A stretch of DNA of 63,050 bases from a virus. Shown in pieces: positions 5,544 to 42,000 of the stretch. A program made the translations under genes and the position numbers. Location: the IMG/VR virus record IMGVR_UViG_3300043640_000027, positions 1 to 63,050 of that record; one strand, written 5' to 3'. Position 1 is the stretch's first letter. Every line of letters begins with the position of its first letter. The notes below the pieces were generated by a model that saw nothing but the letters and a program-made list of their open reading frames with translations, did not search any database and was not told the DNA's origin.

Positions 5544-7028
5544 TCAAGCCCACAAGACCGGCCCAGCCTTCGCCTTGACCGTGTTATCCCCTAGCGCCCG
5601 CATGCCGCTACCGGCCCCATATCGTGCGTACAGGGCTAGGTACTGTATCGCATCGGCCATATGTGAATACTCATTCTTATCTGCGGTATCTAACACTTTA
5701 CCCTGACTGTTACGTGTTTCCTTCCATACGTAGCCTGCCCCCATCACTTCGCGTGTATGAGTTAGATGCGGACTAATCACGAACCCTTCGTCACGACCTA
5801 GAAAAAAGTCCACGGCTTCTTTGCGCGTACTGAATTTATTAGTCATGGCAGGGTACGTTTTAATACCCCGCATAGTCATCATCTGTATAGCGGTCATCTT
5901 AGTTAAGCCTGACCGCTGACCACCTGCCGGGTCACCGCTAGCCACGATACTATACCCATTATACTTACTTCGTAGTAGTGGTAGTATATATCCATCTAGG
6001 AAATCTTCGAGACTTTCGTCTGTCGCCGGTAACTCATCCAGTAACACCAGTCCTTTGAAATTAAGTTGAGCAATAATACAGGCAGGAGTAAGACCGAAGT
6101 CGATACCAAGAATAATGCTAGTACCGCGTCTCGGCAGTATGATCTCTTTCGATACATGCTTATTCTCTGAGAACTTAGAAAAGATCGGCTTACCCCGCCG
6201 CGTCATCCCATACTCGCCCGCCAGATTAACCCGGATGGCCTCTTCACTCTTAGCCATCTGGCGTATATAGTAGTTGTCAGATAGGTGACTTAAGTTCTCT
6301 GCATCAGGATTAAGCTCCCACCTCTCACCGTTCCAAAACACGGCGGGCGGCTGCTTATACTTCTTCCACCCTTTAGGCGTCTCCCCACCCTCAAACTTTG
6401 TATAGCACCAGTGCGTATTCCTCGGAGGGTTAGAGTCGCATATGATCCCCGGTTCTGTAGCACCGAACGTCCGTACCCCATCCGCATCTTTCTTCGTCTC
6501 TGGGTATCGGTCAATACGCTCTAACAGACCATCGACTATCTCGATCGGTATCTCTCGGGCCTCGTTTATGTACGCACCCGTAAGCTCCAAGGACAATAGC
6601 TTGGATACGTCTTCTGGGGTATCGAGCGCCATGAAGTACACTTCAAGGTGTACGCTTGTCCCATCTGCCATCTTCTGTTTGAACGTACACAGTATGGGCA
6701 TGGAATAGACTACCGGCGCTAGCGCGTTGGGCACCCACTGCTGCCACGTCTTTATAGTTGTCGTTTTTAGCTCTGGATACGTGTTACGCACGAACACCCA
6801 TCGTGAGCGTCTTACATGCTGGTCATCAGGCTGTTGACGCATAGCCCGCATCAGCACTTCCATCATGCACCCAGTAGATTTACCCGACCCTACCGGCCCC
6901 TCGATATACTGTACATCAAGGTTTCGATCATTATGTAGTCGCGTCAGTGTAGGCTCTGCCTTATAGACAAACGCCTGCGCCGCTTTAGCTAACTCTGTTT
7001 TCTTAAACTCTTCGACTGGCACACTCAT
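5544..7028 (-). CDS. terL: terminase large subunit
   Basis: Walker A GPVGSGKST and Walker B-like LTGAYINEA. Nuclease-domain-like motifs ILGIDFG, SGDPAG and HMADAIQY. 494 aa. ATGA-coupled to the upstream small-subunit candidate. Confidence 0.85.
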   Translation of the reverse strand: MSVPVEEFKKTELAKAAQAFVYKAEPTLTRLHNDRNLDVQYIEGPVGSGKSTGCMMEVLMRAMRQQPDDQHVRRSRWVFVRNTYPELKTTTIKTWQQWVPNALAPVVYSMPILCTFKQKMADGTSVHLEVYFMALDTPEDVSKLLSLELTGAYINEAREIPIEIVDGLLERIDRYPETKKDADGVRTFGATEPGIICDSNPPRNTHWCYTKFEGGETPKGWKKYKQPPAVFWNGERWELNPDAENLSHLSDNYYIRQMAKSEEAIRVNLAGEYGMTRRGKPIFSKFSENKHVSKEIILPRRGTSIILGIDFGLTPACIIAQLNFKGLVLLDELPATDESLEDFLDGYILPLLRSKYNGYSIVASGDPAGGQRSGLTKMTAIQMMTMRGIKTYPAMTNKFSTRKEAVDFFLGRDEGFVISPHLTHTREVMGAGYVWKETRNSQGKVLDTADKNEYSHMADAIQYLALYARYGAGSGMRALGDNTVKAKAGPVLWA

Positions 7029-8004: not shown

Positions 8005-8032
8005 TAGACAGGGTTAATAAGGGTGGTATAAT
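8005..8032 (+). promoter_or_regulatory. sigma70-like promoter with extended -10
   Basis: TAGACA (8005-8010), 16-nt spacer, TGgTATAAT (8024-8032). Lies in the non-coding hub, facing ORF 8165..8416 and the plus-strand arm. Confidence 0.5.
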
Positions 8033-8164: not shown

Positions 8165-8416
8165 ATGGATCGCATTAATAATGAAGTGTTGTATGGTCTG
8201 GCTCGCCGTATGTCTGGTGTAATGGGCTGCGCAATTGAGCTTGAACGTGGTAGTAAGTTTAATGGCATCGCTTGGAAGTTTGTTTCCCGTAATGGTTCGC
8301 GTACTGAGATAACCGGACAATCGGCCCGTGAGTTATATGAGAAAGCGCACTCGTTTACGTCTGGCTGGTTCGCGCACGAAGATAAGATGGAAGCCGACAA
8401 GCTAAACAAAGGCTAG
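8165..8416 (+). CDS. hypothetical protein (first plus-strand ORF)
   Basis: 83-aa ORF with balanced, charged composition. Weak RBS (AGGAC). Preferred over the Ser-rich antisense ORF 8143..8409. Confidence 0.45.
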   Translation: MDRINNEVLYGLARRMSGVMGCAIELERGSKFNGIAWKFVSRNGSRTEITGQSARELYEKAHSFTSGWFAHEDKMEADKLNKG

Positions 8417-8423
8417 ACACAAG

Positions 8424-9123
8424 CAAGAAACGCGGAAACGCTAAGCGGGGTTATATAGGTAATGGCATATCTAATAATCCCGTGTTTCTTTAATGGAATA
8501 TAGCCGCATAAAAAAGGGTGTTCAAAAATGGGGCTGTGTTTATGTCGATACGGTTTTGTGATTAAGCTAGCTATATACGGCTCTTTTGTATCTTCTGTGT
8601 CTGTGGATAGAAACAAAATGGGTCGGCCATGGGTTAATAAGATCAACAACTTATGACCTACACCGGCCAGTACAGCATGTGCATAACTCCGATGAAACAG
8701 GTGAGATACACCAACGGCTATCCCATTTTCTACGGTTTGTGTTTCTGTTTCTTTTCTAAAAACAGAGGTTCATAGGCAACCCTTGTTTTGGCCACCACAA
8801 CTCACTCGCCTATGAGATTCAGCCCTGTTTCTTTGGTACACCAGACAGCTACAAGAAACGTTCCAGTGGTGTACCAAACACCCTGTATTTTTATACTGCT
8901 ATGTTTGGAAAGCTACAGCGAAACACGAGAGGCTAACCCATTGATTAAACTAAACTCTTTTTGTTTCTTGCACCTTAACGAAACATTAAGAAACTAAGTA
9001 GAATTCCATACTAAACGCGTTTCTTTCGTTTCTCCCTTGTGCAACTGGTACACCACCACGAAACGCTCCATGCCAGCCGTCACCACTGGTACACCTCAAC
9101 GAAACAAGCTACCGCCTAGAAAC
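8424..9123. repeat. iteron array: 18 GAAAC/GTTTC cores, including 8 copies of the 7-mer AAGAAAC/GTTTCTT, plus 4 copies of TGGTACACC
   Basis: GAAAC at 8427, 8435, 8610, 8694, 8855, 8920, 8980, 8990, 9060, 9101, 9119. GTTTC at 8484, 8741, 8747, 8827, 8963, 9019, 9028. TGGTACACC at 8834, 9046, 9087 and inverted at 8868. An AT-rich stretch at 8461-8620 is adjacent. Confidence 0.8.
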
Positions 9124-9150
9124 ACTAGCAGAATCAGTCACATACACCGC

Positions 9151-9179
9151 TTGCCGACCCTAGCCCGATAAGCTACACT
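9151..9179 (+). promoter_or_regulatory. sigma70-like promoter for the early operon (putative)
   Basis: TTGCCG (9151-9156), 17 nt, TACACT (9174-9179), about 50 nt upstream of ATG 9228. The -10 context CTACACTAG recurs at 13706. Confidence 0.4.
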
Positions 9180-9227
9180 AGAACGCGAGCGCACCCGTTC
9201 CACTAACCCACGAAAAGGACACTAGTC

Positions 9228-9560
9228 ATGGCGAAGATCACGAAAGCCAATACCTCACCGCTGGCCCTGTACCGTATTAAAGACTTGCCGCGTGGTGAAT
9301 ACATCCGCCGCGTTGACTTGTGTCCCGACTGTAGAGGGTCAGGCAAGTTTGCTATCTACACCAAAACCGCACACGGCCCAGATTGCGAGTTTTGTAAGGG
9401 AAGCGGTTACGTCAAGGAGTATCCAACGGTATGGGTCAAAGGCGACTACATGCGGTCATGCCTTGTTGCGGGGAAGTATGAGTTAATCCGCTTTGACGAC
9501 ATAAGCCGTTGCATATACAAGCCGGGCAATACGCTGGTGCTGGCAGGCTTCACGTTTTAG
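9228..9560 (+). CDS. DnaJ-type zinc-finger protein (two CxxCxGxG motifs)
   Basis: CPDCRGSG and CEFCKGSG motifs. First gene after the hub; RBS AAAGGA. Confidence 0.6.
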   Translation: MAKITKANTSPLALYRIKDLPRGEYIRRVDLCPDCRGSGKFAIYTKTAHGPDCEFCKGSGYVKEYPTVWVKGDYMRSCLVAGKYELIRFDDISRCIYKPGNTLVLAGFTF

Positions 9561-9662
9561 ATAAGTGGCGATAGGCAAGCCCAGACTAATCAGTAATACC
9601 GCAACACTGGCAATTCAATCGCACTAGGGCGAGTCCTAGTAATACAATCGGAGTCTAATCAA

Positions 9663-11075
9663 ATGGCTGTTATCTCTTTCCCGTTTAAGTCCGCACTGGC
9701 ACTGCGCATTGCCAACCTGATTACTAATGACATTGAGAAGCTGGAACGTGAAGCGTTCGGCACCGTGACTAACTGGCAATCTAAGTATGAGCGCCCATTC
9801 AAAGCACACTATGCCAATGATTTGGTTGCACGCGCCTTGAATATCGACCGTGCCGCGTTCGCGTTAGCGAATGGTATTGGCAAGTATGAAAAGCGCGCCG
9901 AAGCCTACGCGAATAACCCCAACAAAAAGGGTAGGCCATTAACTAGCTTTATCAACGTGGACGATCCGACCGCAGATAATGCCGTAGAGGAACAGATGGA
10001 GTCGGAAGATAACGGACTGGCCGATGAAATCGCCGCGATCCTTTCCGATAATATCCCCGTGCCACAAAGCCGCCAGTCATCCCCGCGTGCGAGTGCTACC
10101 GCAGCACAACCGCAGAACCTACCAAAGCAGCCCACTACGCAAGCCGCGCCCGTTAAGCTACCCGATGGTATTCCCGCCGATGCGCAGAACGCACTGGCCG
10201 CGTTAATGGCGGCGCTTACGCCACAAGCCGCACCGATAGATGAAACCATGATTCGCGAGATTGCACGCGACGAAGCCAAGAAAACAATCAGCCCGACCAT
10301 CGTCATAGTTAATCATGTAGACCCAGACGGCGAGATAACCGTGGTAGATATGGGCGTGCAACATAAAGCGTTTCCGATGTTACTTAAACTGTGCCAGTTG
10401 AAAGACCACGCCGGTTATGCGTTTCCGATATGGTTACCCGGCCCCGCTGGCAGTGGCAAGACGACAGCCGCAATGAACGTTGCAAAGGCGCTTGATATTT
10501 CGTTTCATCATACCGGCGCGGTAGATACCGACTATAAACTAACCGGATATCAGGACGGCGGTGGCTTGTACCATTCTACAGAGTTTCGTGCGGCATACGA
10601 AAATGGCGGGGTGTTTCTGTTTGACGAAGTGGACGCGAGTAATCCTAATGCAATGGTGGCGCTTAATGCCGCGATTGAGAATGGGCGCTGTGCGTTTCCC
10701 GATGCCACCATTGCACGGCACAAGGACTGTGTAGTTATTGCCGCAGCTAATACGTATGGTGGGGGTGCCACGCATGAATATGTCGGACGTAATAAACTGG
10801 ACGCGGCGACAGTTGACAGGTTTATTATGCTGGACTGGCCGTATGATGAAATACTTGAGCGCGCCATCGCGGGAGATAATGAATGGACGACGTATGTCCA
10901 GAGTATCCGGCGAGCGGTTAATAGCGCGGGGATTAAGCATGTAGTCTCGCCGCGTGCCAGTATCAGGGGTAACGCCATGCTAGCCGCAGGGTTTGACAGG
11001 CCGACAGTTATTAAGGCGACAGTACAGAAAGGACTGAGCGCGGAACAGTGGGCTAGCGTGAGCATGAGGGCTTAA
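9663..11075 (+). CDS. AAA+ ATPase, MoxR/CobS-like (AAA_5-type)
   Basis: Walker A LPGPAGSGKTT, Walker B VFLFDEVD, and sensor/Arg-finger region AAANTYGGG...GRNKLDAATVDRF. Pro/Gln-rich low-complexity N-terminal half. Confidence 0.75.
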   Translation: MAVISFPFKSALALRIANLITNDIEKLEREAFGTVTNWQSKYERPFKAHYANDLVARALNIDRAAFALANGIGKYEKRAEAYANNPNKKGRPLTSFINVDDPTADNAVEEQMESEDNGLADEIAAILSDNIPVPQSRQSSPRASATAAQPQNLPKQPTTQAAPVKLPDGIPADAQNALAALMAALTPQAAPIDETMIREIARDEAKKTISPTIVIVNHVDPDGEITVVDMGVQHKAFPMLLKLCQLKDHAGYAFPIWLPGPAGSGKTTAAMNVAKALDISFHHTGAVDTDYKLTGYQDGGGLYHSTEFRAAYENGGVFLFDEVDASNPNAMVALNAAIENGRCAFPDATIARHKDCVVIAAANTYGGGATHEYVGRNKLDAATVDRFIMLDWPYDEILERAIAGDNEWTTYVQSIRRAVNSAGIKHVVSPRASIRGNAMLAAGFDRPTVIKATVQKGLSAEQWASVSMRA

Positions 11076-11077
11076 CC

Positions 11078-11896
11078 ATGAAACTATACACATATAACAG
11101 TCTTGCGGCGTTTACAGTAGACGCAAAGAAAGGCGGGCTAGGCAGCATGTTTATTACCCGTGGAATAGACGCAGAACACTACGGCGGAAGCACGCCAGCG
11201 GAAGCTGCAGCATATGTATTGCGCGGCGCATCGGATAAACAAATGCGCCGCGCTCGCGAGATAATGGACAAGGTGGACGTTAGTTTCCACGACAGAGCAG
11301 AACCGCAATGGGTGCCGAGTATGTGCGGGGCTTATCCGATAGTCGGGGAGTATCTAATGGGGGTGCCGGAACACATGCGGGCGCGTATACCCGTAGAGTC
11401 CGATACTAGCCCGGTCAAACTGGTGTTTGAGGTAGGCGTTAGTCAAGGCATTAGCGTGGAGCAGATAGCCATTACAGGGGCGGCAGTGGCCGCGTTAGCC
11501 ATGCGTATGAGCGAGACAAGGCCAGTGGAGCTATGGGCTATGTCGGCCAATAAAAGCGCACGGACGAACACCGATGTAGTAGCCATGACAAAGTTAGACG
11601 TTAGCCCGGTGTCGTTATCGCAATGTGTAGCGGTGTTCGGTACTCCACAAATGGGGCGCATGCTTTCATTCTCCCATCTGAAATTCGCGGACGGCGATTA
11701 TGGTTCGGGTGTAGGTTGGGCGTTAGGCCGACCGAGTGAGCAGCGTGTTTCCGACATACGCAAAGCGTGCCAGTTAGCGCCGCAAGATATTATATTGCAG
11801 GGGGCGTATTTACCCGACAGGAAATTAATACAGCACGACCCGGTTAAGTGGGTGCATAAGCAAATCGAAAAGCAGCGGAGTATGGACAATGAATAG
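11078..11896 (+). CDS. hypothetical protein, coupled partner of the AAA+ ATPase
   Basis: 272-aa ORF starting 2 nt after the ATPase stop. I could not find a MIDAS (DxSxS) motif, so no vWA/CobT call is made. Confidence 0.65.
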   Translation: MKLYTYNSLAAFTVDAKKGGLGSMFITRGIDAEHYGGSTPAEAAAYVLRGASDKQMRRAREIMDKVDVSFHDRAEPQWVPSMCGAYPIVGEYLMGVPEHMRARIPVESDTSPVKLVFEVGVSQGISVEQIAITGAAVAALAMRMSETRPVELWAMSANKSARTNTDVVAMTKLDVSPVSLSQCVAVFGTPQMGRMLSFSHLKFADGDYGSGVGWALGRPSEQRVSDIRKACQLAPQDIILQGAYLPDRKLIQHDPVKWVHKQIEKQRSMDNE

Positions 11897-12161
11897 GCAG
11901 GACTTGCGCAACGATTACCCATTCCACTTTGCGAGGATCGAACCCATGCACGTCACGTCGATTAATCCGGGCCGAGTTTACCCGCCCATTCAGGGCCGAG
12001 ATAATCAGTGGGCCTATTCCATTGAGTACAACTTCCATCCAACACTAACGCAGATGGTTAGCAGTGGGATTAACTACCCTACTGCCAGCGAAGCTAAACA
12101 TAAGATGCGCGAAGAGGTAACACGGCTGCGCATTAAACACGAACTTCAGGAGATAGGCTAA
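11889..12161 (+). CDS. hypothetical protein
   Basis: 90-aa ORF overlapping the upstream gene by 8 nt, with its stop overlapping the next ATG. Confidence 0.6.
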   Translation: MNRQDLRNDYPFHFARIEPMHVTSINPGRVYPPIQGRDNQWAYSIEYNFHPTLTQMVSSGINYPTASEAKHKMREEVTRLRIKHELQEIG

Positions 12162-12412
12162 TGCGCGGGGCTATCACGTTTCAACCGCTGATTACCGCAG
12201 CAACTAACCATTGCCTGATGGCTGGCATAGTTGAATGTCACGATTGCGGAGATACCAAAACCATGCAGTACGCACTAATGCACGGCTGGAAACAGGTTGA
12301 GCGCGAGCTAGGATCGGACGTGTACATTACCGATTACGTTTGCGATCATTGCTGCGAAGCACGCGTACATGACTATAACCTGATGCTTGAAGAACAGGGG
12401 AATGACCTATGA
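12161..12412 (+). CDS. small Cys-rich (zinc-ribbon-like) protein
   Basis: CHDCGD ... CDHCC motif pairs. TAATG-type coupling on both sides. Confidence 0.6.
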   Translation: MRGAITFQPLITAATNHCLMAGIVECHDCGDTKTMQYALMHGWKQVERELGSDVYITDYVCDHCCEARVHDYNLMLEEQGNDL

Positions 12413-13686
12413 GCCTGACAACTACAATGGGAATCGAACTGACCTATATACCGCTGGCGATTCAGACGGCCATAGACCGTGGCGCGGTGATTAATCCGCA
12501 GCAAAGTTTACCGGGCGAAGAGCATCTGTGTAGCGCATTCGCCCGACTAATGGCGAAGCTGGTAGAGGCGAAGAAAATCCCGACCTACAAAGGCGTGCAT
12601 ACCGATCCGGGTTGCGTGGAGGTGCAGACCCGGCCATATAGGAAACTCACCACGCTGATTAATATAGCGCGCAGGCTGCGCCGTGAGGCCGAAGCATTAG
12701 GCATGGTTACCGAAGCGGCATATACGAATGGTGGCGGCGCGCATATTCATACCGGCATTATCGGTGACAGTGAACAAGAGCGGAATATGTACGCCAAGCG
12801 TATGATGTTGTTTGCCGCTATGAACCCATGGCTATGCTGGGCGACACTTAATGTTAACGACGACATTAACGCCATGCCGATTTGCGAACACCACTTGAAA
12901 AACTGCTACGGCGAGAGCGAAGGAGCATCAGAAGAAACCTATAGCGAACGCGTGACGTACTGCGTTAATGAGCTTGTCAACGAAGAGACCGCACTACACG
13001 CAAGAGGTGCGTGGATGAGCGCGTATACCCGTGAGCGGAATATGCGCGACGTGCGATACGCCCAGCGCGAAGTAATGGGTTTTCGCAAACAGCTATTCTA
13101 TTATCGCCGCGCCAATAGCAAGCAAAGTAATGGCGTAGTAAGCCGTAACGTGAAAGATATTCAGTACATCGGTAACAAAGATCACATGGTAAGGCTCACC
13201 ACCTACGGCAAGTTCGGCACCGCAGAGTTTCGTTGTTTTGAAATGGGCGGCGAAGATAAACTAAAGAGTAATATCATTCTAGCTAATGCGATATGCAAAT
13301 ATGTAGAGCGCTGGGACGTTACACAGTACGACAGCACACAAGTTATGTCCGGCAGTGCCATGCGAAAGATTAAATGGAGTGAGGCGCGCAAAGGTTGGCT
13401 TGATATGCTCACCATGCTAGGACTGGACGCCGCAGACTACCGCAACGAAACGGCACAGATAGCCGCACGCTGGCGCTATGCACGCAGCGAGGGCGAGAAC
13501 CCGACCGCCGCAGAGGTGCCCGCAGCACAGGCGCTGCACGAGCGCAGGGAAGACACTACAGCAAGGGACGCAGCACGCGCCCAACGCCGCTGGATGCGCA
13601 GGCTGACCCGTAGCGGAAGGCATCCGATGTGCCGCGCCGTCGCTCCTACCGCCCCGGTCGACGACATAGCGTCATTGGCCGCTTGA
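12409..13686 (+). CDS. glutamine-synthetase-like amidoligase family protein (putative)
   Basis: GIELTY near the N-terminus, GGGAHIHTG, and GTAEFRCFE. This pattern matches my recollection of the Amidoligase_2 (COOH-NH2 ligase) family. Arg-rich C-terminal tail. Confidence 0.55.
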   Translation: MSLTTTMGIELTYIPLAIQTAIDRGAVINPQQSLPGEEHLCSAFARLMAKLVEAKKIPTYKGVHTDPGCVEVQTRPYRKLTTLINIARRLRREAEALGMVTEAAYTNGGGAHIHTGIIGDSEQERNMYAKRMMLFAAMNPWLCWATLNVNDDINAMPICEHHLKNCYGESEGASEETYSERVTYCVNELVNEETALHARGAWMSAYTRERNMRDVRYAQREVMGFRKQLFYYRRANSKQSNGVVSRNVKDIQYIGNKDHMVRLTTYGKFGTAEFRCFEMGGEDKLKSNIILANAICKYVERWDVTQYDSTQVMSGSAMRKIKWSEARKGWLDMLTMLGLDAADYRNETAQIAARWRYARSEGENPTAAEVPAAQALHERREDTTARDAARAQRRWMRRLTRSGRHPMCRAVAPTAPVDDIASLAA

Positions 13687-13712
13687 CAGGCGTTTGTAGA
13701 ATGTTCTACACT
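13675..13712 (+). promoter_or_regulatory. promoter region (two overlapping sigma70-like candidates)
   Basis: TTGACA (13683-13688), 18 nt, TACACT (13707-13712). Alternatively TTGGCC (13675), 16 nt, TAGAAT (13697-13702). The -35 contains the TGA stop of the amidoligase gene. An 8-bp hairpin at 13712-13738 follows. Confidence 0.4.
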
Positions 13713-13789: not shown

Positions 13790-14236
13790 ATGGCACGAGT
13801 ACATCCGATCGAAGAATTGTTGCGCGTACTTAGCGAGCGCGAAGGCCGCCAGAACAAAGAACAGGAGATTGAAAACAAGATCAAGGCCGCAGGCTACACG
13901 GAAGCGGACTGGTACAGGATCGTCATGTTCCACGAGACGTTCAACGATCAGGCCGGGGCGCTTGCCTATTACCTGACCGTGGCGAGCAAGACCGGGGACA
14001 AAGACGCCGCACGTCTAGGCCTGCAAGTCACCGAGTATGTCGCGAAGCGGGCAACGTGGATCGAGTCCGTGTTTAATGCGTCTGGTGTCTCGCTGGCCGA
14101 CATGAACATGCGTACCGACATGGCACAGTTCCGCAACCGTATGCAGCACGCCGCAGGCGTCTTTACCCGCGTCCTGAACGGTGAAGACCTGTCCGGTTGC
14201 ACTGCCGACGACCTGACGAACATGGCCGACGCGTAA
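13790..14236 (+). CDS. hypothetical protein (paralogue A of tandem pair)
   Basis: 148 aa. Shares a K..GY(T/S)EAD(W/Y)R segment and overall layout with 14304..14732. Locally GC-rich. Confidence 0.65.
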   Translation: MARVHPIEELLRVLSEREGRQNKEQEIENKIKAAGYTEADWYRIVMFHETFNDQAGALAYYLTVASKTGDKDAARLGLQVTEYVAKRATWIESVFNASGVSLADMNMRTDMAQFRNRMQHAAGVFTRVLNGEDLSGCTADDLTNMADA

Positions 14237-14303: not shown

Positions 14304-14732
14304 ATGGTACAGGCAAAAGGCGGCATTCTTAGCGGTATGCTGGACGCGCTGATGGAAGCCAAGATGAAGGAACGCGAAGCGAAGGACAAATTCAAGGCAT
14401 GCATGCAGAGCCACGGCTACAGCGAAGCCGATTACAGGACGTTCAACACGCTGAAAACGCACTTGTCTGCACTGGTGGAGTGCGGTGGCTGCGCCGCTGC
14501 TATCGCCGTCAACACCGACCATCTGCCTAGCGCGGTCTACGCCGTGGCTACCGCGTCCTATCTGGTCAAGGCGGCGCAGTTCATGTACAGCGTGCTGGAT
14601 ACGTGCGGGCTTGACCCTCACGATTTCGAGTTGCAGAAAGACCCGACCGAGTTTTACCGGGTTCTGGCGGAAAAGAAAGCCGAAGCACAGAGCGTGATCG
14701 ACAAGCACGCGTTTGCCGCGTCCATCGCGTAA
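14304..14732 (+). CDS. hypothetical protein (paralogue B of tandem pair)
   Basis: 142 aa. Motif HGYSEADYR matches AGYTEADWYR of the upstream gene. The equal-length antisense ORF 14280..14708 is treated as a GC-driven shadow. Confidence 0.6.
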   Translation: MVQAKGGILSGMLDALMEAKMKEREAKDKFKACMQSHGYSEADYRTFNTLKTHLSALVECGGCAAAIAVNTDHLPSAVYAVATASYLVKAAQFMYSVLDTCGLDPHDFELQKDPTEFYRVLAEKKAEAQSVIDKHAFAASIA

Positions 14733-20463: not shown

Positions 20464-20559
20464 ATGTAGGTGGCGAAATGGTAGACGCGGCGCAAGCTGC
20501 CCTTATATAGAGCGGCCGATCTTGAGGGCGTACAGGTTCGATTCCTGTCCTACATCCCA
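20464..20559 (+). tRNA. tRNA-like element with aberrant anticodon region (type-II/Leu-like D arm; possible pseudo-tRNA or processing signal)
   Basis: 7-bp acceptor ATGTAGG/CCTACAT. Leu-like D arm GCGAAATGGTAGACGC. Canonical T arm ACAGG-TTCGATT-CCTGT, discriminator C and encoded CCA. The 43 nt between the D and T arms (20489-20531) does not fold into a 5-bp/7-nt anticodon arm; it forms a long hairpin at 20498-20530 instead. Confidence 0.45.
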
Positions 20560-20572
20560 TTCGGAGATAATC

Positions 20573-20818
20573 ATGTTCGGTATTATGCACCATCTAAAGG
20601 TGACCATCTGCGAGAACGCAATGGACGCCATCGCTAAGGGCTATTCCAAAGAAGCAACCTACAAAGACTATAAGCCTGTCAACATAGAGGAAGTAGTCGT
20701 GGTGCGTGACGGTACAGAAGGCGGAAACTCTACCGCCGATCTTGTTCTTGTAGACCAAGAAGGCAATAAATACGTCGTCATGGTCACAGGTAATTTACTT
20801 AAGGCTTTGCCGGTATAG
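20573..20818 (+). CDS. hypothetical protein
   Basis: Start chosen at ATG 20573 (GGAGA 5 nt upstream, 14 nt after the tRNA-like CCA). The stop TAG lies 10 nt inside tRNA-Thr. Confidence 0.55.
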   Translation: MFGIMHHLKVTICENAMDAIAKGYSKEATYKDYKPVNIEEVVVVRDGTEGGNSTADLVLVDQEGNKYVVMVTGNLLKALPV

Positions 20819-20884
20819 CTCAGTTGGTAGAGCAATTCACTTGTAATGAATAGGTCGTGAGTTCGATTCTTACTATCGGCACCA
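20809..20884 (+). tRNA. tRNA-Thr(UGU): tRNA-Thr (anticodon UGU)
   Basis: Manual cloverleaf: GCCGGTA TA GCTC AGTTGGTA GAGC A ATTCA CTTGTAA TGAAT AGGTC GTGAG TTCGATT CTTAC TATCGGC A CCA (76 nt). Confidence 0.9.
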
Positions 20885-20897
20885 CTAAGGATTAAAT

Positions 20898-21140
20898 ATG
20901 GAACGCTGGGACGATACTGTACCGCCGTTAATGTTGTTTACCCCCGAAGAGTTCGCCCGTGTACCAGATGGTACAAAGTTAGAGGCTATTGACGGAGAGA
21001 TAGTAACCAAAGGCGAAGATCACATAGACGACGATGTTAGATTCGGTTGTCTAGCTTTCGGAAGTAGGGACGAAGAAGTGCAAAAGTTAGCGAGTGTGGC
21101 GGAATTGGTAGACGCGCTAGATTTAGGTTCTAGTAGTTAA
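20898..21140 (+). CDS. hypothetical protein whose last 16-17 codons and stop lie inside tRNA-Leu
   Basis: AAGGA 7 nt before ATG 20898, 14 nt after the tRNA-Thr CCA. The ORF runs 51 nt into tRNA-Leu(UAG). Confidence 0.5.
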   Translation: MERWDDTVPPLMLFTPEEFARVPDGTKLEAIDGEIVTKGEDHIDDDVRFGCLAFGSRDEEVQKLASVAELVDALDLGSSS

Positions 21141-21174
21141 CACTGTGCGGGTTCAATTCCCGCCATTCGCACCA
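21090..21174 (+). tRNA. tRNA-Leu(UAG): tRNA-Leu (anticodon UAG)
   Basis: Manual fold: GCGAGTG TG GCG GAATTGGTAGA CGC G CTAGA TTTAGGT TCTAG, 13-nt variable arm, GCGGG TTCAATT CCCGC CATTCGC A CCA (85 nt). Confidence 0.9.
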
Positions 21175-21191
21175 AATACAGAGGCATCATA

Positions 21192-21491
21192 ATGGAAATC
21201 AAAGTAGCGCCGGAAGATATTAATACCATGCTGGCGGACGCGGTACTCAAATCCGCCATAGGTAAAGAACTACATCAGGTCATTCTGTCTAAGCTTAATG
21301 ATTATACGTTCAAGCGCGCCATCGAGGAGACGGTTATTTCAGTTGTAAGGAATATCGCGATAGACATGGTTCATGAGAACGAAGAAGTCAAAACTAGAAT
21401 CAAGGAAGAAGTGGCTAAGTACATGGAAGGCGGCGCAATGAAAGATATTATCGCTAAGATAGGCGATAAAATAACTGTGGCTAACTACTAA
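21192..21491 (+). CDS. hypothetical protein
   Basis: 99-aa ORF. AGAGG RBS; the start lies 18 nt after the tRNA-Leu CCA and the stop 5 nt before the next tRNA. Confidence 0.6.
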   Translation: MEIKVAPEDINTMLADAVLKSAIGKELHQVILSKLNDYTFKRAIEETVISVVRNIAIDMVHENEEVKTRIKEEVAKYMEGGAMKDIIAKIGDKITVANY

Positions 21492-21496
21492 ACTAT

Positions 21497-21573
21497 AGGC
21501 GGTTAGCTCAGTTGGTCAGAGCAGGCGACTCATAATCGCTTGGTCGTGGGTTCAAGTCCCACACCGCCTACCA
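21497..21573 (+). tRNA. tRNA-Ile2/Met(CAU): tRNA with anticodon CAU (probably lysidine-type tRNA-Ile2; elongator Met not excluded)
   Basis: AGGCGGT TA GCTC AGTTGGTCA GAGC A GGCGA CTCATAA TCGCT TGGTC GTGGG TTCAAGT CCCAC ACCGCCT A CCA (77 nt). The A1-U72 pair and the anticodon arm match my recollection of E. coli ileX. Confidence 0.85.
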
Positions 21574-21600
21574 TAAATGCAACATAACCAAGGCACGGAT

Positions 21601-21885
21601 ATGTCTAAGGCAGTAGCAGTAACTCAGATGGTTCTGCACAACGCGAATATACCGCGAGTGCTTTGCGACCACATGCTAGGCGAACACCATACAACGCGAC
21701 ACCGCATGCTTGTGGGTACAGTAGTTATGCTTTGCGGGGTATTAATCGCAAAGACCACAGGGCATATTCACTCCGAAGTAGTCGAAGTGATGGGCGATCT
21801 GACAGGTTATCTTGTGCATGGCGTAGGAGCCGTACCTTACGTGGATGCGTTAGTTATAGCGGTACGGCGTAGCAGCGGAGATTAG
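21601..21885 (+). CDS. small membrane protein
   Basis: Start chosen at ATG 21601 (AAGG upstream). Two hydrophobic helices (MLVGTVVMLCGVLIA and LVHGVGAVPYVDALVIAV). The track start 21577 lies 4 nt after the tRNA. Confidence 0.5.
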   Translation: MSKAVAVTQMVLHNANIPRVLCDHMLGEHHTTRHRMLVGTVVMLCGVLIAKTTGHIHSEVVEVMGDLTGYLVHGVGAVPYVDALVIAVRRSSGD

Positions 21886-21886
21886 A

Positions 21887-22057
21887 ATGGCTAAGTCCAT
21901 GAAGGGTGCAGGCTTCAAAGCTGTGCAAAGTAATATCGCTAAGAAAGAAGGTATCCCGATGAAGAGCGCGGGCGCTATCTTGGCGAAGTCCAGCCGCAAT
22001 GCCAGCGCCAAAGCGAAGAAAGCTAACCCAGCACTCAAGAAAGTTAAGGGTTACTGA
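21887..22057 (+). CDS. small Lys-rich basic protein (56 aa, below track cutoff)
   Basis: Manual translation MAKSMKGAGFKAVQSNIAKKEGIPMKSAGAILAKSSRNASAKAKKANPALKKVKGY. Fills the gap and its stop overlaps the next ATG (TGATG). Preferred over antisense ORF 21850..22038. Confidence 0.5.
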   Translation: MAKSMKGAGFKAVQSNIAKKEGIPMKSAGAILAKSSRNASAKAKKANPALKKVKGY

Positions 22058-22497
22058 TGGCTAAGGTCAAGTGGTTAGAGAGGGAGCTATTCCGCTCCCC
22101 CGTGTATTATTGTCTCTGCACTACCGAAAAAGAATACACAGAAGAGTTTGTTCGATTAGACGTTAAGTATCCGGGTGAGTGGTTGAAGAATGACCGATCC
22201 GGCGCTTGCACGCATTTCGCCACACATAAGGACTATGGTACAGTCGCTATCGTCTGTATGCCAATAGAGCCTAAGCGTACATTAGTAGAACTTAATGCGA
22301 TGCTTGTGCATGAAGGGACGCATGTTGTCCAAGAGGTAATGGACAACATAGGTGAGAAGCACCCTAGTGGAGAGTTTCAAGCGTACCTAATGCAGAAAGT
22401 ATGTTTGGAACTAATGGGGGAGATGATGCGCAAGCTATACACTAAACCCAAACTGCTAGCTAAGATTATGGCTAACCAAGCGAAGATATATAAATGA
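22057..22497 (+). CDS. hypothetical protein with HExxH motif (possible small zinc metallopeptidase)
   Basis: MLVHEGTHVVQEV contains HEGTH. 146 aa. Confidence 0.5.
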   Translation: MAKVKWLERELFRSPVYYCLCTTEKEYTEEFVRLDVKYPGEWLKNDRSGACTHFATHKDYGTVAIVCMPIEPKRTLVELNAMLVHEGTHVVQEVMDNIGEKHPSGEFQAYLMQKVCLELMGEMMRKLYTKPKLLAKIMANQAKIYK

Positions 22498-23063
22498 GCG
22501 AATTAATTACCACTACAGCGAATAGAGTCAAAGCTGGTGGTTACTGGTGCGAGGATGCCACAGCGATTACGCAGGCAGCCTTAGATAAGACTGGACTAAG
22601 TTGGGACGATGAAATTCCCGTTACTTGGGGGTTCAATAACCTAGGGCTGGCAAATACTATTCTGGCCCTAGGTTCTGTTCGTCCGAAGTTTCAGAAGCGA
22701 GCAGATGTAATTACTATTAAGTTACTGAAAGAACTACATAGCATAGCTTTGAAGCTATGCGAGAAAGTAGGATTTACGGTAACTGATGTGGGGCATTGGC
22801 TGGGTAACCCGGATCGTGTAGGTAGCCGGAAGACGCAGTATAGTATGTGGCAACAGCTAGGACAGTCTGCCAGTATGCCGGTCGATAAAGCCCTGATAGA
22901 AGCCATGGCAGTCCTATTTAGCGAACAGCCAGACCACCTTAAGTGCGTCCATGCAAGTAAGCAGATACTATTTGTAGCGCGAGCCTTGAGCGGTGATGCA
23001 GGAGCCGTACAACTACGGTACGAGATAATCAACTTTCTACACACGGAGCTAGACAATGGATAA
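22494..23063 (+). CDS. hypothetical protein
   Basis: 189-aa ORF, ATGA-coupled. Confidence 0.65.
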   Translation: MSELITTTANRVKAGGYWCEDATAITQAALDKTGLSWDDEIPVTWGFNNLGLANTILALGSVRPKFQKRADVITIKLLKELHSIALKLCEKVGFTVTDVGHWLGNPDRVGSRKTQYSMWQQLGQSASMPVDKALIEAMAVLFSEQPDHLKCVHASKQILFVARALSGDAGAVQLRYEIINFLHTELDNG

Positions 23064-23463
23064 GATCGAAACGCGGTACTGGAAGCGCGCGCGCCATGAC
23101 TTAGACAGGGACACGAGAGAAGTTATTTACTTCGCTACCGATACAAACGCAGCGCATGCCCGCGCAGAGAGCGACCCACACGCACAGGAATGCGGCTTCC
23201 GCGAGTACAGCGACAACGTACCGGAGCAGGTACACAACGGCGCAGATCGCAGCCCAGCCCCCGTGGAACTGGTAGACCCGCTAGTAGGTAAACAGCAGGC
23301 ATGGGAAGCGTTGCAGGCATGGACTCATTCGCACGGTGACAGCGTAGCGATTCAAGACCAGATCGCCATGCTTGAGCTTTGGAAGCACCAGTTATGCATG
23401 TGGGCAACAAGCACCATGGCTGCGCAGCTTAAGCCCGATGGAGCTAAACCTAATGTCAACTGA
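23056..23463 (+). CDS. hypothetical protein
   Basis: 135-aa ORF overlapping its neighbours by 8 and 11 nt. Confidence 0.6.
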   Translation: MDKIETRYWKRARHDLDRDTREVIYFATDTNAAHARAESDPHAQECGFREYSDNVPEQVHNGADRSPAPVELVDPLVGKQQAWEALQAWTHSHGDSVAIQDQIAMLELWKHQLCMWATSTMAAQLKPDGAKPNVN

Positions 23464-23989
23464 TCTAATGATCGACATTGAAACACTCGGCACAGCAAAT
23501 AATGCCCATGTGTTGTCGGTCGGCATGGTGTGGTTCGATATTAGGCATCCCGATGAATCGCTAGTAGAACTTCCGATCTTACACCCCGATATGGCGCAGC
23601 CGCTTAGTATGATCGACGGCGACACGGTAGCGTGGTGGATGAAGCAAGGTACGGAAGCCAAGCAAGTATTTGCGGACACAGTAGAGCGCGAAGCTCTTTC
23701 CGTGGTCGCCGAAAAAGTATATCAGAATGCCAATAACGCCCAACGTATATGGGCAAAAGACCCGGACTTCGATTGCATTATTCTGGCTAACTTCGTTCAG
23801 AACTATCTGAGCAAGAGTATTAAATGGCCGTACTGGAAAGGCCGCAGCGTCCGCACCATGTTGGATGTACTGCCAGCCACCAAGGAAATGCGGTTTGAGG
23901 GCGTCCAACATAATGCTTTGGCCGACGCGGTTCATCAAGCCAAGCAGATGCAGGCGGTGTTTAGTCACCTACAATTGAGGAACTACTAA
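23453..23989 (+). CDS. DEDDh-type 3'-5' exonuclease
   Basis: Start chosen at ATG 23453 (MSTDLMIDIETLG). ExoI motif DIETLG and ExoIII motif HNALADAVH. Confidence 0.7.
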   Translation: MSTDLMIDIETLGTANNAHVLSVGMVWFDIRHPDESLVELPILHPDMAQPLSMIDGDTVAWWMKQGTEAKQVFADTVEREALSVVAEKVYQNANNAQRIWAKDPDFDCIILANFVQNYLSKSIKWPYWKGRSVRTMLDVLPATKEMRFEGVQHNALADAVHQAKQMQAVFSHLQLRNY

Positions 23990-24156
23990 TGACTGTATGC
24001 AGAGAGTGCGACGGCGTAGGTGAGATTATGTGCGACGAGTGTGGTGGTTCGGGTCTAGGCGATAGCGACAAAGGCACTTGTGAAGTATGCGACGGCAACG
24101 GCGTATTGATGTGCCAGGACTGCGGCGGTATGGGCGAATTAGAAGACGAAGATTAA
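23989..24156 (+). CDS. DnaJ-type zinc-finger mini-protein (55 aa, below track cutoff)
   Basis: Manual translation MTVCRECDGVGEIMCDECGGSGLGDSDKGTCEVCDGNGVLMCQDCGGMGELEDED gives four CxxCxGxG repeats. TAATG coupling. Ends 7 nt before tRNA-Leu(UAA). Confidence 0.6.
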   Translation: MTVCRECDGVGEIMCDECGGSGLGDSDKGTCEVCDGNGVLMCQDCGGMGELEDED

Positions 24157-24163
24157 TAGTATT

Positions 24164-24247
24164 GCGCGGGTGGTGGAACGGTATACACATGAGACTTAAA
24201 ATCTCACGGCGAAAGCCTTGCGGGTTCGAGTCCCGCTCCGCGCACCA
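24164..24247 (+). tRNA. tRNA-Leu(UAA): tRNA-Leu (anticodon UAA)
   Basis: GCGCGGG TG GTG GAACGGTATA CAC A TGAGA CTTAAAA TCTCA, 13-nt variable arm, GCGGG TTCGAGT CCCGC TCCGCGC A CCA (84 nt). Confidence 0.9.
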
Positions 24248-39065: not shown

Positions 39066-42000
39066 TCAATCTTTGGGGAAGTCCGCCTGCGCCTTCTCTA
39101 TCGCTGCGCGCATCTGGGTATCCAACTGTTTGCGGACTAACTGTTTTCTAGTATCTGACATTAACTTATTATTCCGCAGTTCGTTTATTTTCTGTTGGTA
39201 CGCCTTGCGGGCATTATCCAGTGCGCGGTACGAAAGCAGTTCTTTCTTAAACTGCGGATCGCGAGATACGATCTGATCGGCCTGTGCTTTGGCTTGTGCA
39301 TCAGACGATCCATTATCCTTAGCTCGTGATACAATGGAGCTATACCGACGTCGGGAGTCTTGTAGCTGGTCAAGGGTATCATACATCTCATTCTGCATAT
39401 AATGACTTGTGTCTACATATACCTTGCTACCGCCCATACGGCTGGAGTCCGCCACGCCCGCATCGGTCTCCCTGCTACCTGCTACCTGCCGTATTAAATC
39501 ACTGGCCCACTGACCGCCGTAGTTCTGCGCGAAGTAGCGTATGTCTTCGGGAGCGTAGTCTACTTTATGGTCGGTACTATCCGCTAACCACTGCGCAATG
39601 TCCTTAAACACCCGCGGTGTGTTAGCCCGACCGGCATCACTGGGATACTGTCCACTACGTGTTTCCGTGTGTATAGACGAATCGAACGCCGTGGTGTTCC
39701 TACTAACGTCCACGACAGGCCGGACTATGGTAGGAGTAAACCCTAGGATATAGGACGCTAAGAAATTAGTAGGCGTATTGTCTTTGTTACCTGCGGGGGA
39801 TATAGGCCCGTTGCGCGCCAGAGTGTTCATGTAAATCTTAGCGGCTTCTTCTGGTTTAATGTGGCCGTTATTAACCGCCGCCATAAGTATGCCGGGGGCC
39901 ATCATTACTTGCGGCATACCTAGACCGATATTAATACCTATAATCTTACCATCTGGCCCCGGTATCATCATCTTCTGGGTTAGCAAGTTCCCATCTACTT
40001 TCTTAAGTTCGTCGTCACCTAGCATGGCCGCAGCAGCCATATATAGCCCCGCGCCTGCGGCACCTAAAAACCCCTGCCACGCAGCCATCTTTTTATAGTC
40101 TAGTCCGCCAGTCTTCTTAGTGAACGCACGGCGCATAGCATCTGCACTGGTCATACCCACACGGAAGAAGGCAAGCCAACTATTAATGCGACGCCCCTTG
40201 GTGCCAGAGTTGGAGTAGTCCAGCGTTCTGCGTACATCTACAGCGGCTTCTCGTTCGGGCACCCCCATTTCGACCTTAGTCTTAAATAAGGCCACACGAC
40301 CTACGCCTTCCAAGAAGTTAGCGTAGTTACCCGTGTACTCTAGGGCTTCTTGCCACGTCCACTTAGCTGCGTCCAGTACCCCGCCTACGTCCTGTAAGCG
40401 CCTCTGCATCAAGCGCTCTATACCCGCCACGTCGAACCCCTGCGTGAAGTAGTTAGCCCCGCCTGCGGCCTCAAAACGGCGTGTCCAACCCGCCCAGCTA
40501 TCCGGGGAGGCTTCGCCCATTTCGCGGGGCGTCTTGAGTCCTAGCGCCTTAAGTGCTTTGGGGTTATGCGCCAGTAGGTGCGGTAGCAGTGTGGGCAGGG
40601 CTTTATACGCCTGCAAGACATTGCCGTAATACTTACCCAGAGTCGGTAGAGAATTAAATGGGTTGTCGTGCTTAGTTACCGCGTCTGTAAGTGGTATGGT
40701 GGTTAAGTCACGCACAAAACCGCTGAACGTCTGCCAACCGGGGTGCAGCGTTGTATAGAGTCGTGCTAGCCCATTGGTGGGATGCGATAGCCATGATTCC
40801 ACGACATTAGGCTTTTCTACTTCGTTCAGCTTTAGAAGTCCCCGCATTAATTGGGAATCTTTCGGTGCAGTAATGACGTAGTGCGTATCCCCATCGTTAA
40901 CTATAAAGCCGTTCATGGGAGCCTTTAATCTGTCTACCTGCTCGCCTGTCTTGGTATTCGTGAATCCGTCTTTATAGCCGCCCTCAAACGCGTGGACTTG
41001 ATAGCCGGACTTAGAATCCGCATCCATTATGTCTGTAGTCAGTTCATAGGCGGTGTTCTTAAGATGCGCATCAGCTTGTGCTGATCCAGCACGGGTCATA
41101 TCGGCGAATAGCCGAGCAAAGGGACGCTCCGCAAAACTAGTGCGTCCTTCCATGGCCTTCATCTGCTTATTTAATCTGGCAAGGGCTATGTTCTTGGTGG
41201 GTATCATGTCGAAGTTTGCGGCATCCGCTCCGTAGGCCGACCCCTTAAGCGGGACTTGCCATTTCCAGCCGTAGTAGTCAGAATACGGATCGTCCGCAGT
41301 GAACTTACCTGCGGCTATTAAACGTTCTGTCGTTCTAGCCCTAGCTAAATCCATCAGTTTATTTAGGTCGCCCATAGACTTCTGATCCATGCCGCTTTCA
41401 TCGGCTAGCTTCTTAAGCTCGGCCTTGAGCGTGTCTACTGGCATACCCTCGTGCGTCATCCACTCTTCGGGGGTATATTCTGCGTGCTTGTTAGCTAAAG
41501 CCACAATCTGTTTTCGTGCCTCAGTTCCGGAAATCTCCCCGCTACGCATGCTATCTAGCACATCTGCACGGTCTAGCGTGCCCTCAAGTCCTAGCGGCGA
41601 TTCGTTATACCAACTTGTGTACCCACGCTCTAGCCAGTTAGTATTATGGAAGAACTTATTAACTTTCGTCAGCATTTCCGGCATGTTCTTCGCGAACTTA
41701 TGCTGGTTATCGTACATCCAATTCTCGGAAGGGGCATACGCTTCGGCTAAATCTTTATTATTATACTCACTCTGTAAGCCATTCTTCGCCGACGCCGCGC
41801 GGTCTACATCATTACTTTCAGTTATCTTTACCCCTAACTTGCGGGCGTTCTGTACGGCCTTCTCTAGCCCATGCCCCGCCGAAGCGTAGCTTTCAATAAA
41901 GTGCTGCCCTGTGGTTATTGCCCCAAGATTCTTGTTAGAGTTCTTAGCGCGTACTACTGGGGCCTCTTTCTGTAGTGTGGCGTCTACGTCGGAATTTTCC

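Follow-up and report, generated by a model that had tools for sequence, protein, structure and literature searches.

A MoxR/CobS-class ATPase pair and a divergent glutamine synthetase-like ligase lie side by side, probably as separate modules, in the putative early region of a phage genome

Introduction

Podoviruses of the LUZ24-like and phiEco32-like (Kuravirus) groups and phage tf encode proteins of the families Amidoligase_2 (PF12224) and COOH-NH2_lig (PF14395), for which 284 GenBank phage records match the LUZ24 gp18 amidoligase. In LUZ24, tf, SGF2 and 3H10_20 a glutamine amidotransferase adjoins the amidoligase, and an ATP-grasp gene lies nearby in LUZ24, SGF2 and Slicky01. A second group of viral genes, the 'cobST' or MoxR-vWA pairs (CobS-CobT, RavA-ViaA, NorQ-NorD), places an AAA_5-class ATPase beside a partner of ~270-300 amino acids (aa); MoxR-vWA pairs have been noted in jumbo phages and in the archaeal virus ATV. 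Our literature search found no functional study of phage amidoligases or of MoxR/CobS-like ATPase pairs. Here we analyzed positions 9228-13686 of the IMG/VR virus record IMGVR_UViG_3300043640_000027, a phage contig of 63,050 nucleotides (nt) that was taken in its entirety (hereafter the window). This region holds six genes, gp1 to gp6, including an ATPase with its partner (gp2 and gp3) and a candidate amidoligase (gp6).

Distribution and recombination history of the six genes

Six open reading frames (ORFs), all on the + strand, were confirmed: gp1 (9228-9560, 110 aa), gp2 (9663-11075, 470 aa), gp3 (11078-11896, 272 aa), gp4 (11889-12161, 90 aa), gp5 (12161-12412, 83 aa), and gp6 (12409-13686, 425 aa). 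They are genuine genes and not chance reading frames, since each has homologues at the protein level in independent phage contigs from metagenomes, where the gene order is retained. The original prediction, made from the sequence of the window, had interpreted them as one co-functioning ATPase-amidoligase system. This interpretation was not supported, as the modules differ in their distribution and recombination history. Our preferred reading (probability roughly 0.62) is that the region is a co-directional and probably co-transcribed part of the non-structural arm, put together from at least three modules that evolve independently.

The ATPase and its partner were found without gp6 in Sinorhizobium phage phiM5 and, within the loci covered, in Rhizobium phage P106B, Gordonia phage Kudefre, mycobacterial phages, and contig L023 (L numbers denote our loci). 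The complete phiM5 genome carries the pair, and no gp6-family ORF was detected in it at E ≤ 1. When GenBank phages were searched at the nucleotide and protein levels, neither the cassette nor gp6 gave a match; in this search of limited sensitivity, 722 GenBank phage records matched the ATPase and none matched gp6. The reverse situation was also encountered. In five loci (L005/L006, L007/L018, L012, L019, and L021, the last a T4-like 177-kb contig), the pair was absent within 6-10 kb of the gp6 relative. L005 and L012 share the surrounding synteny, which includes an SprT-like gene and also, for L012, a member of the gp4 family, and the slot of the pair is filled there by an anti-restriction-type gene with ArdC-N and MPTase-PolyVal domains (L005/L006 3946-4818; L012 6589-7461). 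In further phages (L024 and L025), a short member of the gp6 family stands alone in the early region; in L025 it is the third gene after the divergent region.

Recombination has separated the same modules in the window itself. A recombinant segment at 10359-11835 (+) comprises the ATPase core, from gp2 residue ~233 onward, and the body of gp3. Residues 1-232 of gp2 are closest to L008 (82/62/85% by segment), and residues 233-470 to L022 (74/86/76%). Likewise, gp3 is 68% identical to its homologue in L022 and 36% to that in L008, with the last 19 residues again near-identical to L008, while gp4, gp5 and gp6 are 92, 95 and 78% identical to their L008 counterparts. DNA similarity to L008 is lost over 11052-11835 and is back at 11836; similarity to L022 is continuous from 9614 to 11878. 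The two junctions are located at ~10359, within gp2, and at 11836, at the 3′ end of gp3. An L022-like segment between L008-like flanks indicates that the ATPase core and gp3 move together, and apart from gp4-gp6.

Conserved synteny in relatives, which had been anticipated, was observed in part. Eight distinct loci have the order ATPase, DUF7192 gene (gp3 family), small genes and then gp6 (L004/L015, L008, L009, L010, L011/L016/L017, L013, L014, and L020), and sister metagenomic contigs carrying homologues of the six genes in this order are 61-64 kb long. The conserved order is confined to one subclade, and it does not stop at gp6 but takes in the paralogues gp7 and gp8, gp9 and an SprT-like gene. 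The boundary drawn around six genes is therefore arbitrary, and the longer, subclade-confined synteny resembles a block of the early region that has been inherited vertically.

The best surviving alternative is that gp2-gp6 do form one integrated early system, in which tagging or amidation by the amidoligase would follow once the ATPase and its partner have presented or remodeled the target. It is favored by the gene order shared among the eight contigs over a gp6 identity range of 35-78%, by the tight gene junctions, and by the weakness of the promoter and terminator matches inside gp2-gp6. We nevertheless consider it unlikely, given that the modules occur apart in both directions, that recombination breakpoints part the ATPase core and gp3 from gp4-gp6, that anything from two to five small genes may separate gp3 from gp6, depending on the locus, and that synteny extending beyond gp6 within one subclade is what an inherited order would produce. 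Some observations weigh against our preference for separate modules. The complete order persists in the eight loci even where gp6 identity is as low as 35%; the loci without the pair were covered for 6-10 kb on each side of gp6, and the pair could sit elsewhere in those genomes; and tblastn missed the known weak phiM5 relative of gp3, which limits the sensitivity of the negative results for GenBank phages. Some functional cooperation of the pair and gp6 is possible.

gp6 and the GS-like ligase superfamily

For gp6, the conservation of the N-terminal MSLTTTMG in all homologues favors a start at 12409 and not at Met7, the start called in the database. The motifs quoted in favor of an amidoligase, GIELTY (residues 8-13), GGGAHIHTG (108-116) and EFRCFE (273-278), are present and fall on invariant columns of the family. 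By fold and motifs, gp6 very probably belongs to the superfamily of glutamine synthetase (GS)-like carboxylate-amine ligases; by score, it does not belong to Pfam Amidoligase_2, so the original assignment stands at the level of the superfamily only. Four converging lines lead to this placement: (i) weak Pfam matches, (ii) the predicted fold compared with the Protein Data Bank (PDB), (iii) predicted viral structures, and (iv) alignment of motifs with the ligase YbdK.

With respect to Pfam, the sole match of gp6 is DUF2126, a 'putative amidoligase' (E = 0.024, below threshold), and PF12224, with a gathering threshold of 22 bits, gave no match. No threshold-level match to gp4, gp5 or gp6 was found in Pfam, PHROG, NCBIfam or PADLOC. 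Among 23 close homologues of gp6, DUF2126 was weakly matched by 15 (best E = 9e-7) and Amidoligase_2 by one. Six of 53 broader relatives match Amidoligase_2 (best E = 1.3e-6) and six match DUF2126; the bit scores of these DUF2126 matches, and of the matches among the broader relatives, lie under the cut-offs.

An AlphaFold2 (AF2) model of gp6, computed from a 23-sequence alignment, reached a predicted local distance difference test score (pLDDT) of 83 and a predicted template modeling score (pTM) of 0.74. In a Foldseek search of the PDB, all of the top 50 matches were glutamine synthetases, GmaS, or YbdK-family proteins (1r8g, 1tt4), at E values from 3e-5 to 5e-3. Among predicted viral structures (BFVD, E ~1e-2 or better), the named matches were mostly phage proteins labeled 'Amidoligase' or 'COOH.NH2 ligase', including those of phages tf, Vp_R1 and CW02; the other matches were several proteins without a name and a few with different names. 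Finally, a profile of 53 sequences aligned the VE, GGGxH and TxEFR motifs to the equivalent segments of YbdK. Direct searches of the PDB with the gp6 sequence and family profiles yielded marginal YbdK matches at most.

Across the 53 relatives (15-54% identical to gp6), residues G8, E10, D66, E71, E273 and R275 are invariant, and T12, G110, H112, H114, W144, D151 and R354 are nearly so. The main motifs are G8-x-E10-x-T12 (12430-12444), D66...E71 (12604-12621), GGGAHIHT with H112 and H114 (12730-12753), and T271-x-E273-F-R275 (13219-13233). Such a pattern argues for a conserved active site, and the acidic, His and Arg residues appear to follow one another as in the metal/ATP site of gamma-glutamylcysteine ligases (GshA).

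A few results speak against this assignment, or against an active enzyme. The PDB fold matches reach a template modeling (TM) score of only 0.3-0.4. The second Glu of the canonical ExE is Thr12 throughout the gp6 family, so that activity is not assured; at this region the Amidoligase_2 motif reads GxExExE. When the family was compared by hhalign with six phage Amidoligase_2 proteins, the EFR region alone was aligned, with a probability of 27%, and a comparison with LUZ24 gp18 by itself aligned the EFR motif and nothing more.

We conclude that gp6 represents an uncatalogued phage family, or branch, of GS-like ligases that is too divergent for existing models. An exhaustive profile search retrieved 498 representative clusters at E ≤ 1e-3; a later homologue search, based on a profile of the short members, yielded six proteins. 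Many members are ~300 aa long and have no helical insert. Every locus examined was phage-like, and the gene is typically solitary, in a non-structural or early region, which suggests that the gp6 family works on its own.

The C-terminal tail of gp6

The C-terminal tail (residues 372-425, 13522-13683, +) was not part of the original prediction, and its ssrA-like sequence was first seen in the present analysis. It consists of an Arg-rich helix (residues 372-402, 13522-13614, +; RAQRRWMRRLTRSGR), present in gp6 and its closest relatives, followed by the ssrA-like end DDIASLAA (13660-13683, +). Among the 27 ORFs of the window that were checked, gp6 alone ends in LAA. In the family, an [LM]AA end was found in 15 of 80 full-length members (gp6 included) and in none of 82 short members. 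The tail typically reads ...D-[DE]-x-[YF]-x-LAA, as in DDNYALAA (P0023), EDNYELAA (P0020), DATYALAA, and DDDFALAA. Genome-encoded ssrA-like degrons are known, for example, from mycobacteriophage integrases and repressors. Phage precedent for ssrA-like tags is also mentioned in the literature (PMC9635641). The sequence suggests that host ClpXP may limit the lifetime of gp6, which would confer a time-limited early activity, and that the Arg-rich helix may contact an acidic or nucleic-acid partner.

The same tail figures in a different, though improbable, reading, in which gp6 is catalytically dead and acts by binding, e.g. as a decoy that engages ClpXP/SspB by means of this tail, or by sequestration. 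The Thr in place of the second Glu and the conserved ssrA-like end are compatible with it. The invariance of E10, D66, E71, E273 and R275 over 53 sequences, together with the near-invariance of G110, H112 and H114, is hard to explain without catalysis, and the short members retain the motifs although they have no tail.

More doubtful still is a role of gp6 in hypermodification of DNA or RNA bases, by which an amide-linked group would be added to evade restriction. Viral contigs are known in which thymidine-hypermodification genes are accompanied by amidoligase and amidotransferase genes (PMC8989533), the Arg-rich helix could bind nucleic acid, and the genome encodes the thymidylate synthase ThyX. 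Against this, ThyX lies 12 kb from gp6, the relatives of gp6 are solitary among small early ORFs, and no 5-hydroxymethyldeoxyuridine (5-hmdU) kinase, aGPT-Pplase, deoxyuridine monophosphate (dUMP) hydroxymethylase, radical S-adenosylmethionine (SAM) enzyme or pyridoxal phosphate (PLP) enzyme was found in the vicinity of gp6 or in a scan of the larger proteins of the replication arm.

The gp2-gp3 pair

The assignment of gp2 to the AAA+ ATPases of the MoxR/CobS (AAA_5) class was confirmed by Pfam (AAA_5, 38.2 bits against a cut-off of 22; E = 1.7e-9). Residues 196-467 match PHROG 249 (E = 1.3e-51), a family labeled 'porphyrin biosynthesis', and the top PDB sequence matches were midasin and then, weakly, CobS (E = 5e-4). 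gp2 stayed below the CobS equivalog model TIGR01650 (15.8 bits; cut-off 558.55). The ATPase core spans residues 196-470 (10248-11072), with Walker A GPAGSGKT at 10440-10463 and the Walker B residues DE at 10623-10628. In an alignment of 11 sequences, G260, P261, G263, G265, K266, D321, E322, N363, R376, R386 and R431 are invariant; these cover Walker A, Walker B, sensor, and arginine positions. The N-terminal half had been described as disordered. This applies to a variable, low-complexity linker (residues ~96-170) and not to its surroundings, as residues 1-95 (9663-9947) form a conserved N-domain and residues ~171-232 a conserved motif.

The partner, gp3, belongs to DUF7192 (PF23822; 50.4 bits against a cut-off of 27) and matches PHROG 1909 (E = 5e-18). 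The view that it is a dedicated partner of gp2 was strengthened, as many phages have conserved the two genes together and recombination moves them jointly. The two genes are adjacent in phiM5, P106B and Kudefre as well as in contigs L022 and L023; in addition, the mycobacteriophages Silverleaf and Tourach show a DUF7192-like match, and other mycobacteriophages match the ATPase. Judged from sequence, gp2 and gp3 are a pair, and we consider them a known, widespread but uncharacterized phage module. A literature search on phage DUF7192, CobS-like and MoxR-vWA proteins brought up no study of what the pair does. In the LUZ24-like phiM5 (L026, 40934-43121), the two genes are the first inside the right terminal repeat. 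A DUF3846 gene lies near the pair there and also accompanies it in L004, L009, L010, L011 and L023.

Over 18 gp3 sequences, among them those of phiM5, P106B and Kudefre, the most conserved feature is a loop, G84-x4-V-x3-L-x-G-x-P-x2-M-R (11327-11380). The AF2 model of gp3 has a pLDDT of 76, which falls below 50 for residues 72-109; the signature loop is thus invariant in sequence, yet predicted to be disordered. A Foldseek search returned nothing significant (best E = 0.25). Its weak matches (E ≥ 0.25) include the vWA/MIDAS proteins Rea1-MIDAS, NorD, VWF-A1, Ku80 and integrin beta-I. A profile search of the PDB gave no sequence link to the vWA fold, and the MIDAS motif DxSxS is not found in gp3, in which the corresponding strand reads E-V-G-V-S-Q-G-I-S, nor is it conserved across the family. 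The likeness of gp3 to CobT and other vWA proteins is accordingly a lead and not a result, and this counts against the model proposed for the pair.

The weakest alternative, that gp2-gp3 are a viral cobaltochelatase CobS-CobT, an auxiliary metabolic module hijacking host CobN to raise cobalamin as hypothesized for viral cobST clusters (PMC8651126), finds some backing in the PHROG 249 label and the weak CobS match, but is very improbable in view of the TIGR01650 score (15.8 bits, cut-off 558), of midasin and not CobS as top PDB match, of a gp3 with neither a significant vWA fold nor DxSxS, and of a position at the start of the early region here and in phiM5, an odd site for a cofactor-supply gene.

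The small proteins gp1, gp4 and gp5

The three small proteins are, as far as their sequences indicate, lineage-specific zinc-binding or accessory proteins. A DnaJ-type zinc finger had been proposed for gp1. Two exact CxxCxGxG repeats are present at residues 32-39 and 53-60 (9321-9407), where DnaJ has four, but the Pfam score (DnaJ_CXXCXGXG, 20.7 bits) lies under the cut-off of 32.7, and the repeats form an insert that is absent from the L011 homologue. Homologues of gp1 are 35-57% identical in L008-L011 and L013, and its N- and C-terminal parts are invariant around the zinc-finger insert.

Homologues of gp4, characterized by the motif PGxVY...W.YSIEY...AK.AMREEV.RLR.KH, lie directly upstream of gp6 in eight loci, including L012 with no ATPase pair; gp4 tracks gp6 and not the ATPase. 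The Cys-rich gp5 (CxxC ... CxxCC, with a conserved acidic C-terminus) is probably a zinc ribbon and is limited to the closest relatives L008, L009, L010, L013 and L014. We also considered gp4 or gp5 as a Pup-like tag for gp6 and rejected both, since the C-terminus of gp4 is not conserved and gp5 occurs only in the closest relatives.

Gene spacing and transcription signals

The tight spacing from gp2 to gp6 was verified, with a gap of 2 nt between gp2 and gp3 and overlaps of 8 nt (gp3/gp4), 1 nt (gp4/gp5) and 4 nt (gp5/gp6); gp1 and gp2 are 102 nt apart. Each of gp3, gp4, gp5 and gp6 is preceded by its own Shine-Dalgarno-like purine run. Tight packing of genes with individual ribosome-binding sites is normal in phage early operons and is not in itself a sign of the protein complex that had been suggested as possible. 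Nor is the cassette strictly the first unit after the divergent region: a conserved ORF of 83 aa at 8165-8416, 77% identical in L009 and 49% in L010, comes before it.

Promoter and terminator candidates were derived from a consensus scan, which is not proof of function. The best sigma70-like candidate of the region (8005-8032, +; 11/12 with extended -10) lies upstream of the 83-aa ORF. Upstream of gp1, a terminator-like hairpin (8868-8892) is followed by a candidate promoter at 8975-9004 (+; TTAACG-18-TAGAAT, 9/12). A further candidate (13683-13712, +; TTGACA-18-TACACT, 10/12) overlaps the stop codon of gp6 and probably starts the next unit, beginning with gp7. Inside gp2-gp6, the scan picked up two hairpins that resemble terminators and four weak matches (9/12) to a promoter, none of them otherwise supported. 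Co-transcription of gp1-gp6 is plausible on this basis, and 'early' timing of the cassette is inferred from its position.

Between the 83-aa ORF and gp1, 810 nt (8417-9227) contain no conserved ORF; the DNA is 79% identical to sister contig L008. This stretch holds 18 GAAAC/GTTTC pentamers, where 1.7 are expected (P ~4e-13); nowhere else in the genome are these pentamers as dense. Further features are direct repeats TGGTACACC...ACGAAAC at 8834, 9044 and 9085. It may be an array for regulator binding, an origin, or a non-coding RNA.

Genome context

The phage has no close relative in GenBank: megablast of the window against GenBank phages yielded zero matches, and its terminase is at most 39% identical to those of known phages. 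A structural arm on the minus strand (terminase at 5544-7028; SU10-type portal) is separated by a divergent intergenic region from a non-structural arm on the plus strand, which extends to 38.9 kb and encodes ThyX, PolA, a ligase, a PD-(D/E)XK nuclease and an SNF2 helicase. It is followed by a second minus-strand structural arm. There, an ORF of 2,436 aa (39066-46376, -) carries, close to the C-terminus, the domain LPD38 ('large polyvalent protein associated') and may encode an injected polyvalent protein.

Downstream of gp6, the tandem paralogues gp7 (13790-14236) and gp8 (14304-14732) are conserved at this position throughout the subclade that shares the gene order; L004 has one ORF of 275 aa that clusters with them. 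A cluster of five tRNAs (Ala-TGC, Thr-TGT, Leu-TAG, Met-CAT and Leu-TAA) occupies 20464-24247. The 96-nt tRNA-Ala was called by ARAGORN and not by Rfam, and may be spurious or interrupted.

Proposed roles of the modules

Most plausibly, the ATPase pair and gp6 both act in host takeover or counter-defence, and do so separately. This proposal is based on the position next to the divergent promoter region and on the ArdC-like gene found in the slot of the pair. For the pair, host takeover or counter-defence fits better than cobalamin supply because it stands at the start of the early region here and in phiM5 and is replaced by an ArdC-like gene in sister phages.

By analogy with CobS-CobT, NorQ-NorD, RavA-ViaA and Rea1-MIDAS, a gp2 ring would use ATP to remodel or load a target recruited by gp3 as an adaptor. 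The flexible gp3 loop G84...M100-R101 would be the likeliest element to engage the ring. In gp6, for which the fold and the conserved residues are established here and the chemistry and target are most likely as follows, E10, E71, H112/H114 and E273 would serve as metal/ATP ligands, with R275 at the phosphate. A carboxylate would be activated as an acyl-phosphate at the expense of ATP and then joined to an amine, so that some molecule of the host would acquire an amide or isopeptide linkage. The lifetime of gp6 would be limited by host ClpXP through its ...LAA end.

On a more speculative note, the gp6 family could constitute an unrecognized class of phage early effectors, i.e. a self-limiting, ClpXP-timed and ATP-dependent ligase that covalently amidates or tags a host macromolecule or a defence-signaling metabolite and thereby disables host functions. 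A bolder version would have gp6 cap the C-terminal carboxylates of LAA-type degrons and so rewire host proteolysis. In the subclade of the window, the neighboring pair might additionally prepare the target. We regard this scenario as a long shot. The significance of the region would be greater if the ligase modifies a host macromolecule or if the tail is a functional ClpXP timer. For now, its practical value is a narrowed set of hypotheses on function: gp6 offers clear candidate catalytic residues, its ssrA-like tail gives a simple prediction of ClpXP timing, and the ArdC-like gene in the pair's slot of two sister phages points to counter-defence over cofactor metabolism.

Comparison with known systems

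The gp2-gp3 pair resembles the viral MoxR-vWA pairs in that an AAA_5-class ATPase stands beside a partner of similar size. It differs from them in its partner, a DUF7192 protein without a significant vWA match or MIDAS motif, and in its location, which is the early region and not the neighborhood of virion-assembly genes. In addition, gp2 lies far under the CobS equivalog threshold and has a clade-specific N-terminal domain.

The LAA tails in the gp6 family typically share the C-terminal ...[DE]-x-[YF]-x-LAA with the ssrA tag AANDENYALAA. The end of gp6 itself, DDIASLAA, departs from ssrA in lacking the aromatic residue, and its carrier is a putative enzyme, encoded by a phage of lytic type.

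With the YbdK/GCS2 ligases and glutamine synthetase, gp6 has the fold of the catalytic domain in common, at ~10% identity and a TM score of 0.3-0.4. Unlike GS, it has no N-terminal beta-grasp domain, and one metal-ligand position is occupied by Thr.

The closest phage counterparts of gp6 are the Amidoligase_2/COOH-NH2_lig proteins of the LUZ24-like, tf and phiEco32-like podoviruses. The GS-like fold and the H-x-H and E-F-R motifs are common to both, and both are encoded in the non-structural arm of podovirus-type genomes; the phage of the window also shares its SU10-type portal with the kuraviruses. On the other hand, gp6 scores below threshold for both Pfam models, its N-terminal motif is GxExT in place of GxExExE, and it has features of its own in a long helical insert (residues ~160-240) and, toward the C-terminus, in the Arg-rich helix and ssrA-like tail. 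The neighborhood differs as well: a Pfam scan of gp1-gp9 detected no glutamine-amidotransferase-like, Aig2 or ATP-grasp domain such as those that accompany the amidoligases of LUZ24, tf and the kuraviruses. Taken together, the gp6 family would add a third, so far uncatalogued branch of GS-like ligases to the phage repertoire.

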